Shown here piece after piece: positions 2,812 through 63,835 of a stretch of 64,000 bases of DNA. The translations under genes were made by a program, and so were the position numbers. The notes beneath the pieces are model-generated. The model had not been told where the DNA came from and ran no database searches. It worked only from the letters and a program-made list of their open reading frames with translations. This DNA comes from Gallionella sp. (GTDB lineage Bacteria > Pseudomonadota > Gammaproteobacteria > Burkholderiales > Gallionellaceae): contig JBGARW010000001.1 in NCBI GenBank assembly GCA_044230015.1, positions 18,205 to 82,204 on the forward strand, in the 5' to 3' direction. Numbering within the stretch: position 1 is the stretch's first letter; each line of letters opens with the position of its first letter.

Positions 2812-3561
2812 ATGGACGAATTCGACATACGCAAGCCGATGAATCTGCGCCGGCGCGGCATTTACCTGTTGCCCAACCTGTTCACGACCGGCGCACTGTT
2901 TGCCGGTTTTTACGCGATCGTTCAGGCGATGAATGTCCGTTTCGAATTTGCGGCAGTGGCGATCTTCATCGCCATGGTGCTGGACGGGCTGGATGGGCGC
3001 GTGGCGCGGCTGACGCATACCCAAAGCGAATTCGGCGCAGAATACGACAGCCTGTCCGACATGGTCTCGTTCGGTGTTGCGCCGGCATTGGTCATGTACG
3101 AGTGGGCTTTGAAAGGGCTGGGCAAGTGGGGCTGGTTCGCCGCGTTCATTTATTGCGCTGCCACCGCGTTGCGCCTGGCGCGCTTCAACACCAACATCGA
3201 CGTGGTCGACAAACGCTACTTCCAGGGCCTGCCCAGCCCGGCTGCCGCTGCGTTGGTGGCGGGTTTCGTCTGGGTGATGCTGGACTACGGCTTCAAAGGC
3301 GGCGAATTGCGCTGGTATGCGGCGGCATTGACGGTGTTCGCGGGATTGAGCATGGTCAGCAATCTGCCGTTCTACAGTTTCAAAGACCTGAACATGCGCA
3401 AGAGCGTACCGTTCATGGTGATCTTCCTGATCGCACTGTTCTTCATCCTGATTTCCAGTTATCCGCCCGGTGTATTGTTTGCCTTGTTCCTCGGCTATGC
3501 CTTGTCCGGCTATGTGCTGTGGCTGCTGCGTCTGCGCAAAAAACAACAGCCCATTGTCTGA
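2812..3561 (+). CDS. pssA: CDP-diacylglycerol--serine O-phosphatidyltransferase
   Basis: 249 aa polytopic protein with the CDP-alcohol phosphatidyltransferase motif DGLDGRVARLTHTQSEFGAEYDSLSD. Confidence 0.9.
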   Translation: MDEFDIRKPMNLRRRGIYLLPNLFTTGALFAGFYAIVQAMNVRFEFAAVAIFIAMVLDGLDGRVARLTHTQSEFGAEYDSLSDMVSFGVAPALVMYEWALKGLGKWGWFAAFIYCAATALRLARFNTNIDVVDKRYFQGLPSPAAAALVAGFVWVMLDYGFKGGELRWYAAALTVFAGLSMVSNLPFYSFKDLNMRKSVPFMVIFLIALFFILISSYPPGVLFALFLGYALSGYVLWLLRLRKKQQPIV

Positions 3562-5544: not shown

Positions 5545-6633
5545 TTGAATAAGATTCTGTTAGGTTCCGTATTATTGCTGACCTCGCTGGGAGCCAATGC
5601 CGCCCTGATCGAGTGTTCCATCATTCCCCACTCCCAATGTCCCCATGCGGAATTCTCCGGAAAGAATCTGGCGCAGGCGAATCTGCAGGAGGCGCACCTC
5701 ATCGAAGGCGACCTGTCGCGCGCCGACCTGACCAAGGCCAACCTCAAGGGCGCGAACATCTACCACGGCAAGCTGATGGGCGGCAATTTCACCGAGGCGG
5801 ATATGACCGACATCACGCTGTATAACGCCGACCTGACCGGGGCGAACCTGACCGGGGCGAACCTGACGCGCGCCAAGCTCAAAGGCGCCAACCTGACCGA
5901 TGCCAACCTGACCGATGCCAACCTGACCGATGCAGAGATCGAAAATGCAAAATTCAATAAGGCGGTTTTCTGCCGCACGACGATGCCGAACGGCATCGTG
6001 AACAGCGGCGCGAACTGTCCTGCCAAAAAAACCGAAAGAAACGCCAGGTCCGAGCAGGCCGAGGCTGCGGAGAGCGCCATCAATGGCTGCGTGATCCAGC
6101 CGCGCACGGTATGCACGAATGCTGCGCTGGCCGAGGCCAATCTGGGTTCCGCCAGCCTTTCCGGCGCGCAGCTCTTCATGGGCAATCTGGCGCAGGCCAA
6201 CCTGTTCAAGGCCAATCTCGGCAAGGCCAACCTGACCGAAGCCAACCTGACCCGCGCCAATCTGACCCGCGCCAACCTGTCGCAAGCCAACCTGACCGAT
6301 GCCAACCTGAACAAGGCGGTGCTGCGCGGCGCACAACTTGAACGCGCCAATCTGACCGGCGCGATCCTGCTGAATGCCGACCTGACCGACGCCGACCTGA
6401 GCGGCGCAAATATCGCCGATGCCACGCTGACCGGTGCGACCTTCTGCAATACGGTCATGCCCAACGGCACGGTGAACAACAGCAGTTGCATGGCTGAAAA
6501 AAAAACCCTAGAGGTTACTGAACCGGCAAAGGTCGAGCCGATAAAGGCCGAGCCGGCCGTGGAACAAATCAAACCAGCTGAGCCTGTTAAGACCGCCAAA
6601 CCGGCGGCCAAGGCAAAGACCAAGAGCAAGTAA
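5545..6633 (+). CDS. exported pentapeptide-repeat protein with two repeat modules and a Lys/Pro/Ala-rich tail
   Basis: TTG start 6 nt after GGAG. Signal peptide MNKILLGSVLLLTSLGANA. There are two runs of A(N/D)L(T/S)x pentapeptides, each preceded by a Cys pair and followed by FC.T.MPNG.VN...C. The tail reads PAKVEPIKAEP...AKAKTKSK. Confidence 0.85.
   Translation: MNKILLGSVLLLTSLGANAALIECSIIPHSQCPHAEFSGKNLAQANLQEAHLIEGDLSRADLTKANLKGANIYHGKLMGGNFTEADMTDITLYNADLTGANLTGANLTRAKLKGANLTDANLTDANLTDAEIENAKFNKAVFCRTTMPNGIVNSGANCPAKKTERNARSEQAEAAESAINGCVIQPRTVCTNAALAEANLGSASLSGAQLFMGNLAQANLFKANLGKANLTEANLTRANLTRANLSQANLTDANLNKAVLRGAQLERANLTGAILLNADLTDADLSGANIADATLTGATFCNTVMPNGTVNNSSCMAEKKTLEVTEPAKVEPIKAEPAVEQIKPAEPVKTAKPAAKAKTKSK
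5887..5931 (+). repeat. perfect 3 x 15-nt tandem repeat (GCCAACCTGACCGAT) inside the pentapeptide gene
   Basis: Direct reading gives three identical consecutive units, each encoding ANLTD. Confidence 0.95.
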
Positions 6634-26981: not shown

Positions 26982-27692
26982 ATGAAGAAAAGTCTGTTGG
27001 TAGTGAGCCTGATTTCCCTGTATGGCGGTGCCTATGCGGCGGATTTCACCGATACCGCGCGTGTGGTTTCCAGCACGCCGATCTACGAGCGCGTGGCGGA
27101 ACCGAAGCGTGAATGCTGGATGGAGACCGTGCAGGTCACCCCAAAGGAGCGCTCCATCGGCGGTGCGGTGATCGGCGGTGTCGCGGGCGGTTTGCTGGGC
27201 AGCCAGGTCGGCGGCGGCAGCGGCAATACAGCGGCGACGGGCGCGGGCGCCGTGGCCGGCGCGGTGATCGGCGATCGCGTCGCCAACCCGGACAGCAACC
27301 GTTCCGCAACCGGCGCGGTGGTCGGCGGTGTGGCCGGCGCGGTGCTGGGCAGCCAGGTCGGCGGCGGCACGGGGAACAAAGCCGCGACTGCGGTGGGCGG
27401 TATCGCCGGCGCGGTGATCGGCGATCGCGTCGCCAACCCGGACCAGCCGCGCACCGAACAGGTCGAGCGTTGCCGCGAGGTGCAGGCCAGCCGCGAAGTG
27501 ATCAAGGGATACACCGTGGTCTATCGTTACAACGGCCAGGACTTCACCACGACCTTGCCCTACCAGGTACAGGCAGGCGAGACGTTGCGCGTGGGGGTGA
27601 GCGTATCGGTCGAGGAGCGGCGCGACGGCCGCTATGACGACTCGCAGAAACGCCGTTATGAGGATCGCCGGGACAGGCCCAGTTACCAGTGA
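26982..27692 (+). CDS. glycine-zipper (Rick_17kDa/Slp-like) outer-membrane protein with an internal ~50-aa duplication
   Basis: ATG at 26982 follows AGGAGCGAAAC. Signal peptide MKKSLLVVSLISLYGGAYA. There are two copies of GAV(I/V)GGVAG.LLGSQVGGG.GN.AAT...AGAVIGDRVANPD. Confidence 0.8.
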   Translation: MKKSLLVVSLISLYGGAYAADFTDTARVVSSTPIYERVAEPKRECWMETVQVTPKERSIGGAVIGGVAGGLLGSQVGGGSGNTAATGAGAVAGAVIGDRVANPDSNRSATGAVVGGVAGAVLGSQVGGGTGNKAATAVGGIAGAVIGDRVANPDQPRTEQVERCREVQASREVIKGYTVVYRYNGQDFTTTLPYQVQAGETLRVGVSVSVEERRDGRYDDSQKRRYEDRRDRPSYQ

Positions 27693-61846: not shown

Positions 61847-62437
61847 ATGGCTGCTGATTTGAGCGCGTTGCGTACCACCCTGGCGGACCTGCTTGGCGAC
61901 AGGCTGGCCGGCATGGAGGAAAGACTGGGCGAACTGACCGTGGAGGTCAGGGCGGCCGGGATGCCGGACACGCTGGCGCGCCTGCGCGACGCGGCGGGTT
62001 TCGGGCAGATGATCGACCTGTGCGGCGTGGATTACTCCGCTTACGGTGATGGCGCTTGGGAAGGCAAGCGGTTCGCTGTCGTCTATCACCTGCTGTCGGT
62101 GGCGCACAACATGCGCCTGCGGGTGCGCATCTTTGCCGAGGATGACGATTTCCCGGTGCTGGAATCCGCCACGGAGATCTGGTCTTGCGCCAACTGGTAT
62201 GAGCGCGAGGCTTTCGACCTGTATGGCATCGTGTTCACCGGGCATCCCGACCTGCGCCGCATCCTGACCGATTATGGATTTGTCGGCAACCCGTTCCGCA
62301 AGGACTTCCCGCTGTCCGGCCACGTGGAGATGCGCTACGACCCGGAGCAGCGGCGCGTCGTGTACCAGCCGGTGTCGATCGAGCCGCGCGAGGTGACGCC
62401 GCGCATCATCCGTGAAGAGAACTACGGTCGCGTTTGA
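61847..62437 (+). CDS. nuoC: NADH-quinone oxidoreductase subunit C
   Basis: 196 aa with the motifs [31 protein letters not shown] and [10 protein letters not shown]. Confidence 0.95.
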
Positions 62438-62447
62438 GGATAAAGAC

Positions 62448-62573
62448 ATGGCGGAGATCAAGAATTACACGATGAACTTTAGTTGCGGCCGCCCTGCGGG
62501 CTTAACTTGCCTGCGCAAGTTAGCCTTCACTGAAATTCATGGTGAACGCGCACTGAACCTGGTGTCGAGATAG
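62448..62573 (+). other. 41-codon uORF made of a duplicated nuoD start (11 codons) fused to a 101-nt structured insert
   Basis: GAGGA-N7-ATG at 62448. The translation is [41 protein letters not shown], ending at TAG (62571-62573), 8 nt before the genuine nuoD ATG. A hairpin TAACTTGC-CTGC-GCAAGTTA lies at 62503-62522. Confidence 0.7.
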
Positions 62574-62581
62574 GCGGAGTT

Positions 62582-63835
62582 ATGGCGGAAATAAAAAACT
62601 ACACCATGAATTTTGGGCCGCAGCACCCCTCCGCGCACGGCGTGCTGCGCCTGGTGCTGGAGCTGGACGGCGAGGTCATCGAACGCGCCGATCCGCATAT
62701 CGGCCTGCTGCACCGTGCCACCGAGAAGCTGGCCGAGCACAAGACCTTCCTGCAGACACTGCCCTACATGGACCGGCTCGACTACGTCTCGATGATGAGC
62801 AACGAGCACGCCTACGTGATGGCGGTCGAGAAGCTGGCGGGCATCGAGGTGCCGCTGCGCGCGCAGTACATCCGCGTGATGTACGACGAGATCACCCGCA
62901 TCCTGAACCACCTGCTGTGGCTGGGCGCGCACGGGCTGGACATCGGCGCGATGACCGTGTTCCTGTACTGTTTCCGCGAGCGCGAAGACCTGATGGACGC
63001 CTACGAGGCGGTATCCGGCGCGCGCCTGCATGCGGCCTATTACCGTCCGGGCGGCGTGTACCGCGACCTGCCGGACAGCATGCCGCAATACCAGGCATCG
63101 AAGATCCACAATGCCGCAGCGGTGAAGAAGCTCAACGAGAACCGCCAGGGCTCGCTGCTCGATTTTCTGGAGGATTTCACCGATCGTTTCCCCGCTTACG
63201 TCGATGAATATGAGACGCTGCTGACCGACAACCGCATCTGGAAACAGCGCACCGTGGGAATCGGTGTGGTCTCGCCGGAGCGTGCCCTGGCGCTGGGCTT
63301 CACCGGCCCGATGCTGCGCGGTTCCGGCGTGGAATGGGATCTGCGCAAGAAACAGCCCTACGAGGTCTACGACCGACTGGATTTCGATATCCCGGTCGGG
63401 AGCAACGGCGACTCCTATGACCGTTATCTGGTGCGCGTCGAGGAGATGAGGCAGAGCAACCGCATCATCAGGCAATGCATCGCCTGGCTGCGCAGCAATC
63501 CGGGCCCGGTGATGACCGACAACTTCAAGTTTGCGCCGCCCAGACGCGAGGCGATGAAGCAGAACATGGAAGAGCTGATCCATCACTTCAAGCTGTTCAG
63601 CGAAGGGATGCATGTGCCGGCCGGCGAAGTCTATGCGGCGGTGGAGCATCCCAAGGGGGAGTTCGGTATCTACCTGGTCTCCGACGGCGCGAACAAGCCG
63701 TATCGCATGAAGATACGTGCGCCGGGTTTCGCCCACATGGCTGCGCTCGACGAGATGGCGCGCGGCCACATGATCGCCGATGTGGTGACCATCATCGGCA
63801 CGCAGGACATAGTTTTTGGTGAAGTTGACCGTTAA
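62582..63835 (+). CDS. nuoD: NADH-quinone oxidoreductase subunit D
   Basis: 417 aa beginning [31 protein letters not shown] and ending with the C-terminus [13 protein letters not shown]. Confidence 0.96.

Follow-up and report, generated by a model that had tools for sequence, protein, structure and literature searches.

The start of the gene nuoD is present twice in a stretch of 64,000 nucleotides from Gallionella sp. (contig JBGARW010000001.1), which is referred to as the window, and the two copies enclose a short insert with a conserved core. It is probable, though by no means certain, that this insert is a small, non-autonomous, low-copy structured insertion cassette, which carries its own replacement gene end and has lodged inside nuoD. 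Cassettes with the same core occur in many Betaproteobacteria and constitute a family that apparently has no published description; the literature was searched for the hairpin sequence as well as for the concept, which yielded no account of the core, and apart from work on BRE and REP/REPIN the results were unrelated. From the distribution of the cassettes only, we infer that they are, or were, mobile.

The doubled nuoD start and its counterparts in relatives

In the window, the operon has the order tpiA-secG-nuoA-nuoB-nuoC-nuoD-nuoE. The upstream copy of the nuoD start (L) and the downstream copy (R) encode the same peptide of 11 amino acids and match in 27 of 33 nucleotides; all six differences are synonymous and located at third codon positions. 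Full-length NuoD continues from R only. The Shine-Dalgarno sequence (SD) of the upstream start, GAGGA (62436-62440), overlaps the nuoC stop codon. An earlier reading of the window, made from the sequence alone and called the sequence-only reading below, had reported the doubled start, the six synonymous differences and the continuation from R, and coordinates and sequence agree with it. It was also correct with respect to the nuoC stop, an upstream open reading frame (uORF) of 41 codons, its TAG at 62571, the 8 nt separating this stop from the ATG, and a stem of 8 bp with a 4-nt loop. When the window was shuffled 20 times with dinucleotides preserved, 33-mers at most 300 nt apart never matched at 27 of 33 positions, the best values being 22-25. 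The other seven comparable local repeats of the window are all located inside repeat-protein genes.

Table. Coordinates of the inserted unit, its components and the flanking genes in the window
Feature	Position	Strand	Remarks
nuoC	61847..62437	+	196 aa; stop TGA 62435-62437; a Complex1_30kDa gene is at the same place in homologous loci
Native nuoC-nuoD spacer	62438..62447	+	10 nt, GGATAAAGAC; resembles the spacers of insert-free relatives (GGATAGCGTC, GGATGTAGTC, GGATTCAGTA)
L copy	62448..62480	+	ATGGCGGAGATCAAGAATTACACGATGAACTTT; original start of nuoD, now displaced, with the ATG and 10 further codons; opens the relay ORF
Relay ORF (uORF)	62448..62573	+	41 codons plus TAG; runs through core, anti and spacer; ends 8 nt before the nuoD ATG
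Inserted unit	62481-62614	+	~134 nt; core, anti, variable spacer with SD, replacement nuoD start (R)
Core	62481..62532	+	52 nt, conserved; match of covariance model R1 at 62477-62536, 74.6 bits, E 1.6e-23
H1 (outer stem)	62477-62483 with 62530-62536	+	covariation
H2	62487-62489 (GGC) with 62523-62525 (GCC)	+	covariation
P1 (hairpin)	62491-62494 with 62498-62501	+	covariation
P2 (hairpin)	62503-62510 with 62515-62522	+	loop CTGC; covariation
Anti segment	62533..62545	+	AAATTCATGGTGA; reverse complement of nuoD codons 7-11, downstream copy (62602-62613)
Spacer	62546..62581	+	fast-evolving; relay-ORF stop 62571-62573; SD-like GGCGGAG/GGAG 62573-62579 for nuoD
R copy	62582..62614	+	ATGGCGGAAATAAAAAACTACACCATGAATTTT; functional nuoD start, contiguous with the gene body
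nuoD	62582..63835	+	417 aa; Complex1_49kDa at homologous loci

The nuoC-nuoD junction was compared in 80 species-level genomes, which were chosen by NuoC similarity and whose top matches are metagenome-assembled genomes (MAGs) of Gallionella and Gallionellales with 83-86% identity. In most of these genomes the gap between the two genes is -8 to 22 nt. The junction is empty and 10 nt long in L001-L003, which are the closest relatives, and the 10-nt spacer of the closest genomes, GGATNNNGTC, is similar to the one that precedes the window's first ATG. A homologous insert with a second nuoD start is present in 13 of the 80 genomes and amounts to 15 units, as L015 and L030 carry two units in tandem and consequently three starts. 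The upstream copy matches the NuoD variant of its own lineage, for example MPEIK in L015 and MAEIRNYT in L074. Decayed units are found in L048 and L063. A covariance model search of 609 kb around nuoC of the 80 genomes detected no further copies outside the nuoC|nuoD junction. The nuoC|nuoD insert was also found on at least 31 metagenome contigs, some of which contain tandem units. No exact match to the window's NuoC/NuoD was found in public assemblies, the nearest contig being 85% identical.

L030 has the order H - unit a - M - unit b - H, in which the middle copy M is foreign to both outer copies. As single units, a is found in L193, together with an M-like R, and b in L133. The order in L030 cannot result from a simple target-site duplication, and this model was set aside.

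An assembly or chimera artefact is a general possibility for MAG-like data, and nothing beyond this speaks for it. The same junction structure is present in independent assemblies from NCBI, ENA, JGI and Logan. As this architecture recurs in dozens of independent assemblies, an artefact is ruled out for all practical purposes.

Several observations accompany these comparisons. In L028 (4648-4722), a nuoC|nuoD remnant comprises anti, spacer and functional start, and the upstream copy and most of the core are gone; L and core can thus be deleted. At some loci (L004, L116), though not demonstrably in the window, the duplication may reach into the nuoC tail. Several of the window's other local direct repeats are due to a run with a period of 15 nt at 5826-6400 (GCCAACCTGACCGGN...), which is typical of a pentapeptide-repeat protein gene. 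At 27186-27400, a glycine-rich coding region (GxxxG-type) contains an internal duplication with a period of 150 nt and up to 33/33 identical positions. A scan of 62300-62750 revealed neither promoters nor terminators.

Dispersal, fold and pairing of the cassette

Metagenome contigs were scanned with the inner hairpin GCTTRRCTTGCNNNNGCAAGTYAGYC alone, i.e. with a query free of nuoD sequence, which yielded at least 120 contigs. Among the matches listed, the targets of the core are ftsW|murG (37), nuoC|nuoD (31), VWA-protein tails (6), REP-like palindromes (4), tRNA (4), argF (3) and other loci (35). Units are arranged in tandem at 13 or more of the metagenome loci.

The units share the order L - core - anti - spacer - R - rest of gene (window orientation), and the core follows the pattern GGCT/AGTT-N-CGGCCGC, variable GC hairpin P1, hairpin TAACTTGC-NNNN-GCAAGTTA, GCC, TNCRCYG. 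The target copy L usually ends in TTTT, with a T at position -1 in 110 of 112 units, and in most of the 124 analysable units there is a direct target duplication of 33-80 nt whose end coincides exactly with the left border of the core. The coding targets examined were nuoD, ftsW, argF and VWA-protein genes, and in all of them the body of the gene is on the side of R. Insertion of the element thus severs a terminal fragment of the gene, namely L, for which R substitutes. At nuoD sites this fragment consists of the N-terminal 11 codons, the insertion point being located after codon 11 (...AAY TTT | GGG), and the core is in sense orientation. In the case of FtsW, OTC (argF) and NorD/CbbO-like VWA proteins, the fragment consists of the C-terminal 10-17 codons plus the stop codon, and the core is antisense.

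These findings bear on the origin of the doubled start. If the 5' region of nuoD had been duplicated locally in tandem and had decayed while a hairpin arose in situ, the 33-nt direct repeat would be explained, and a second, weak repeat (62548-62564 / 62640-62656) does exist, with 13/17 identities at a different offset. The sequence-only reading had considered such a decayed duplication and had noted that the spacer faintly echoes nuoD codons 12-45; however, the identity is 26/101, which is chance level. Moreover, the core is a conserved element at unrelated genes (ftsW, argF and others), and L is constrained as a coding sequence instead of decaying (see below). A local duplication is thus refuted in practice and has hardly any probability left. 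A one-off recombination or gene-conversion patch, likewise suggested in that reading, gives way to a dispersed family at many other genes. The best fit among its options is a foreign integrating element with its own replacement 5' end. Its proposal of a MITE/REP family holds in a loose sense only, as the cassette is low-copy and resides within gene ends rather than in intergenic regions. The covariance model finds a single copy in the 64 kb of the window (next score 13 bits), and no second copy within the window was detected by pattern, BLAST or covariance model. In plasmid, phage and IMG/VR viral collections, the core was not found.

A four-helix model of the core (H1, H2, P1 and P2) was built from position-anchored pair tables and then tested by a formal count on 44 cores. 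Pairing across the helices was observed in 96.4% of the cells compared to 90.9% in shuffles (0/500), and sliding the partners lowered it to 25-56%. The covariation score was 0.186 compared to 0.091 in shuffles (0/500). Compensatory pairs are abundant in the outer stem (G:C 69 / A:T 36) and in the 3-bp helix that encloses both hairpins (G:C 89 / A:T 19). The stems of P1 are highly variable (CCC/GGG, GCGC/GCGC, CCAC/GTGG, CAGC/GCTG and longer ones), and in the divergent nuoD-site units of L048, L052 and L063 the inner hairpin is kept via double changes. RNAalifold, applied to a MAFFT alignment, recovered P2 only. A scan of 62300-62750 against Rfam 15 gave only sub-threshold chance matches, such as CRISPR-DR28 with 23 bits versus a gathering score of 35. 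The conservation of the core is 0.91, compared to 0.72 for the spacer and 0.61 for adjacent third codon positions. As the fold is near-palindromic, the covariation data are silent on DNA versus RNA; the fold may matter as DNA, as RNA or as both, and the data fit each of these cases.

The sequence-only reading had overlooked the segment at 62533-62545 that is complementary to nuoD codons 7-11, here named anti. In the window it forms an inverted repeat of 12 nt that is 100% complementary to the downstream copy, and the resulting anti:R helix is present in the window's predicted minimum-free-energy (MFE) fold (z = -2.4). In 69 non-redundant units, it is the R copy and not L that agrees with anti: at positions that discriminate between L and R, the count is 116/155 for R versus 20/155 for L. 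Anti follows the lineage-specific R sequences, for instance in the choice of Leu codons (CTG/CTC/TTG), and unit a of L030 and L193 differ by a compensatory switch (AAC-TTT/AAGTTC versus AAT-TTT/AAATTC). Within the pairing region, third codon positions hardly vary in R among members of the window's clade, whereas they are variable in L. Because anti tracks R family-wide, and because of the compensatory switch and the invariant third positions of R, the anti:R helix is, to judge from these comparisons, a selected or templated feature. A further complementarity, between TGCGGCC (62484-62490) and GGCCGCA (62616-62622, nuoD codons 12-14), is also paired in the predicted MFE fold. It is probably fortuitous, since relatives do not keep this pairing (TTACGGCC, GCGACC and TCCGGCC variants).

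Some sites deserve separate mention. Tandem arrays of two to three units have periods of 105-146 nt; three units are present in L087, L126 and L187, and two in L015, L030, L110, L119, L141, L145, L147, L159, L162, L168, L175 and L180. In L175/L179, the anti of every array unit best fits the terminal, functional gene-end copy. In L095 (~3040-3400), L118, L153 and L173, a second repeat family is found near the cores, namely a GTAG-tagged REP-like palindrome (GTAGGTCGGAAAAGC...TTCCGAC). Here, the core is located at the apex of the palindrome, whose arms take the place of the target copy (L-end) and anti; these sequences fit an insertion at a hairpin apex. In L101, L163, L166 and L190, one cassette adjoins a Phe-like tRNA (5' half GGCCTGGTAGCTCAGTCGGTAGAGC). 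A 38-nt duplicate of the tRNA 5' end is located 39 nt from the core, a layout unlike that of the coding targets.

Constraint on the gene-end copies, proposed relay translation and probable origin of the insert

Minimum changes per codon position were counted in the nine genomes that have the window's unit without indels. They are 1/0/11 for L, 0/0/7 for R, 3/7/3 for the core, 0/0/2 for anti and 9/11/12 for the spacer, which changed at ~0.89 per site without codon periodicity. L is therefore under protein-level constraint, as it shows 1/0/11 changes while the adjacent spacer changed at ~0.9 per site. Differences between L and R at the NuoD N-terminus, counted in the gene frame, are synonymous in ~82 and non-synonymous in 17 cases. 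FtsW tails show ratios of 8:0, 10:0 and 9:1, with arginine codons exchanged between AGA and CGC, and a VWA-protein tail shows 9:0; where stop codons differ, one stop replaces another. At some loci L decays (L082, L107, L133, L129, L048, L063).

The ORF that starts in L, termed relay ORF, runs without interruption across bodies of 80-121 nt in all non-redundant nuoD-site units (31/31), and its stop lies -15 to +8 nt from the ATG of R in each of them; both other frames meet a TAA or TAG in the hairpin. The cassette is antisense at ftsW|murG, and 24/25 units there have a relay ORF. It starts at an ATGA overlap with the ftsW stop, crosses the cassette and finishes inside the duplicated FtsW tail. 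The stop of this tail overlaps the murG ATG (ATGA) in single units and in the last unit of an array; within tandem arrays the overlap is with the start of the following relay ORF, such that the relay ORFs are chained. Three of the 24 ftsW relay ORFs have no detectable downstream start. At nuoD sites, the relay ORF has already been annotated as a 'hypothetical protein' of 39-48 amino acids, which is represented by 45 protein clusters and at the loci inspected is always located between the Complex1_30kDa and the Complex1_49kDa gene. As judged from the sequences, the relay ORF is kept open yet is no conserved protein, because its spacer part lacks codon periodicity. Two proposals of the sequence-only reading are thus borne out: the synonymous-only pattern reflects coding constraint and not decay, and the predicted layout for termination-reinitiation is kept in all homologous units.

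The relay ORF also bears on programmed translational bypass, according to which L would be the true N-terminus of NuoD and ribosomes would take off at UUU 62478-62480 and land at UUU 62612-62614. Matched AAY-UUU codons are present on either side of the structured gap, the hairpin begins directly after the take-off codon, and L is protein-constrained. On the other hand, the gap of 134 nt compares to 50 nt in T4 gene 60, the codon following UUU is AGU/AGC and not a stop, and R has its own conserved SD and ATG with all 11 codons constrained. In addition, an ORF that is open to the next start in every nuoD-site unit would be needless for bypass, and the same L/R pattern exists at C-terminal gene ends, where bypass would be pointless. 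We therefore consider bypass highly improbable.

The probable reading, an insertion cassette with a replacement gene end, can be formulated as follows. Ribosomes leaving nuoC would re-initiate at L and translate across the cassette, whereby the relay ribosome would melt the anti:R helix and reach its stop beside the SD, 8 nt ahead of the nuoD ATG. In this manner translation would be handed to nuoD, and the insertion would be nearly harmless. The cassette itself would move, or would have moved, as a folded single strand with the help of a hypothetical enzyme, of the HUH/Y1 transposase or tyrosine-recombinase type, that acts in trans and recognises hairpins. Anti would pair with the target end, place the cut after the T-run and steer each insertion to one and the same conserved end. 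If the cassette were lost precisely, L would be joined to the gene again, and L and R would alternate as the working gene end. The proposed explanation of the synonymous-only differences is hence that each copy spends time in this role. Such turnover, in which L works at the empty site and R when the cassette is inserted, is favoured together with mostly within-lineage transmission because of the order of copies in L030, the single occurrence of units a and b elsewhere and the movement of M with unit a; further reasons are that anti tracks R, that presence is patchy, that units stack in tandem and that near-identical cores exist at unrelated loci.

Several points weigh against this reading. 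No mobilising enzyme, no circle junction and no empty/filled polymorphism within one population was seen. For the mobilising gene, 2,102 ORFs within 2.5 kb of the cores were clustered, and ten representatives were scanned against Pfam. No enzyme emerged; the recurrent clusters are dominated by housekeeping genes of the target loci, and the representatives comprised FtsW, MurB, NuoB, a VWA protein and six sequences without Pfam match. A gene flanked by inverted core pairs was not found either. The divergence of the spacer correlates with the synonymous divergence of the host in the window's clade (r 0.47), and at ftsW sites R follows the gene next to it (r 0.75). Inheritance is therefore mostly vertical, which also suits an insertion that is old and fixed. 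The protein variant encoded by L and R is always that of the host lineage, and thus any transfer would be between close relatives. Furthermore, the model gives no account of how a cassette gains anti and R for a new target, copy number is as low as one in 64 kb, and the searches of plasmids, phages and viral contigs brought up no copies.

One or several ancient insertions might instead have become a fixed, domesticated leader, that is, a permanent device for translational coupling without ongoing mobility. The relay would then need the native N-terminal (at ftsW, C-terminal) peptide or codons for re-initiation, hence the constraint on L, and compensatory evolution would keep the anti:R pairing, so that nuoD initiation would depend on relay translation. 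The near-universal relay ORFs at nuoD and ftsW are in agreement with this possibility. The same is true for the 1/0/11 changes of L next to a near-neutral spacer while cassette and host co-diverge, for the tracking of the adjacent gene by R at ftsW sites, and for the third positions in the pairing region, which are nearly invariant in R and vary in L. A domesticated leader leaves unaccounted for, however, the near-identical cores at many unrelated loci, the two stacked different units of L030 with their foreign middle copy, and the patchy presence among close relatives along with the tandem arrays. Also, a constraint on initiation efficiency alone would not be expected to freeze ten amino acids or AGA/CGC-swapped arginine codons. 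Taken together, we regard a purely domesticated leader as rather unlikely.

As a tentative extension of the cassette reading, which we would not yet expect to be correct, the family could represent a novel type of mobile element. These enzyme-less single-strand 'homing cassettes' would choose their target by ~13-nt anti pairing and would be mobilised in trans by a hairpin-recognising enzyme that is retargetable through an anti/R swap. They would insert within the ends of essential, conserved genes, carry a recoded replacement for the severed fragment, and be rendered neutral by a read-through frame and a coupling hairpin.

If the cassette reading is true, very small selfish or domesticated DNA can occupy the ends of core genes harmlessly by bringing along a spare gene end and a relay. 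The core genes concerned belong to complex I, cell division, cell-wall and arginine synthesis. The cassettes would explain annotation oddities such as the 39-48-aa 'hypothetical proteins' between nuoC and nuoD, doubled starts and stops, and long intra-operon gaps, and they are natural test cases for termination-reinitiation coupling. They also constitute a clean system in which two copies of one gene fragment are both kept under protein-level constraint. Finally, they suggest an enzyme that recognises a four-helix DNA/RNA junction and is maybe guided by base-pairing, which would be of interest to genome engineers.

Comparison with known systems

Integrative elements that restore the end of their target gene include tRNA- and tmRNA-targeting islands and prophages as well as islands that integrate at the 5' end of dusA. 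IMEX that depend on XerCD, CTX-phi among them, integrate in the form of a folded single strand and form tandem stacks. Like gene-end-restoring elements, the cassette is flanked by direct repeats that contain a gene end, the element-side copy is functional, and the target is regenerated, which makes tandem stacking possible. As in these elements and IMEX, the single-stranded form contains a hairpin that imitates the target duplex, the cassette's equivalent being anti:R. However, gene-end-restoring elements are of kb scale and encode or adjoin their integrase, whereas the cassette unit of 98-150 nt has no recombinase gene and is flanked by housekeeping genes. Moreover, one cassette core serves many different targets, the repeat of 33-80 nt displays deep synonymous divergence, and a relay ORF is kept open across the element.

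With IS200/IS605-PATEs and REP/REPIN (RAYT, TnpA-REP), the cassette shares its small size, the structured and enzyme-less nature and the conserved imperfect hairpins. As in the IS200/IS605 group, it inserts just 3' of a short motif, usually TTTT, and the guide logic of IS608, where an element segment pairs with the cleavage or target site, resembles anti. The pairing segment, however, comprises ~13 target-specific nt versus 4 nt in IS200/IS605. Unlike PATEs, the cassette has one conserved set of core hairpins, and its right end is the target-specific anti:R helix instead of paired subterminal hairpins. An assignment to PATEs was rejected, as some targets end in GTAGT, GTAAT or GTTGT and not in a fixed motif, and as a long target duplication is present. 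REP/REPIN were rejected as well: the cassette is low-copy and lies inside gene ends versus high-copy and extragenic, it has no GTAG/CGTC tag, and position 5 of the core (GGCTN) is unconserved. In the flanks of the cores, which were the only regions covered, there was no RAYT gene candidate.

The outer stem H1 (TTTT-GG[C/T] : [R]CC-G-AAA) resembles a terminal inverted repeat and co-varies, but continues into target-derived sequence. The short target-site duplications of MITEs (2-10 bp, identical copies) do not match the cassette's duplications of 33-80 nt, which are usually diverged, and L030 is incompatible with them. Rickettsia palindromic elements and other MITEs within ORFs are small palindromic repeats that are tolerated and translated in-frame in the host protein. 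Unlike these elements, the cassette interrupts the gene and provides it with another start or stop, together with a relay ORF. Integron attC sites, which have R''/R' boxes (RYYYAAC ... GTTRRRY), were also considered and rejected: the GCTTAAC...GTTAGCC boxes are only 12 nt apart (40-120 in attC), there is no integron context, and the boundaries of the cassette duplication are at the outer stem and not at GTT.

BRE, according to Hot et al. (2011; PMC3110155), is a Betaproteobacterial repeat of ~90 bp that is often in tandem, sometimes overlaps ORF ends and is transcribed. It starts with a T-run followed by GGCCGCGGGCCGCCC, which is close to the cassette's TTTTGGCTNCGGCCGCCC; this likeness is confined to the first ~18 nt (PMC3110155). 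The Bordetella BREs of supplementary list S1 begin with TTTTTTTTTGGCCGCGGGCCGCCC, also close to the TTTTGGCTNCGGCCGCCC core start (PMC3110155). The remaining sequence is unrelated, and since no GCTTAACTTGC...GCAAGTTAGCC hairpin is present in any listed BRE, identity of the two was rejected. Unlike the cassette, BRE has T-runs on both sides (PMC3110155), and by keyword the main text of that paper contains neither the word 'duplication' nor a complementary segment or a relay ORF. Based on the similar starts, a recognition motif or an enzyme may be common to both families.

With respect to translation, the closest parallel is uORF termination-reinitiation coupling, in which the stop lies within a few nt of the next start and this position is conserved; the cassette displays such a layout at the sequence level. 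As predicted from the sequence, the relay stop is near the next start with an SD just upstream, and the downstream start is located in a hairpin whose 5' arm lies inside the upstream ORF. Unlike in known uORF coupling, the coupling ORF is made by the insertion and travels with it, and its first 11 codons duplicate the downstream gene.

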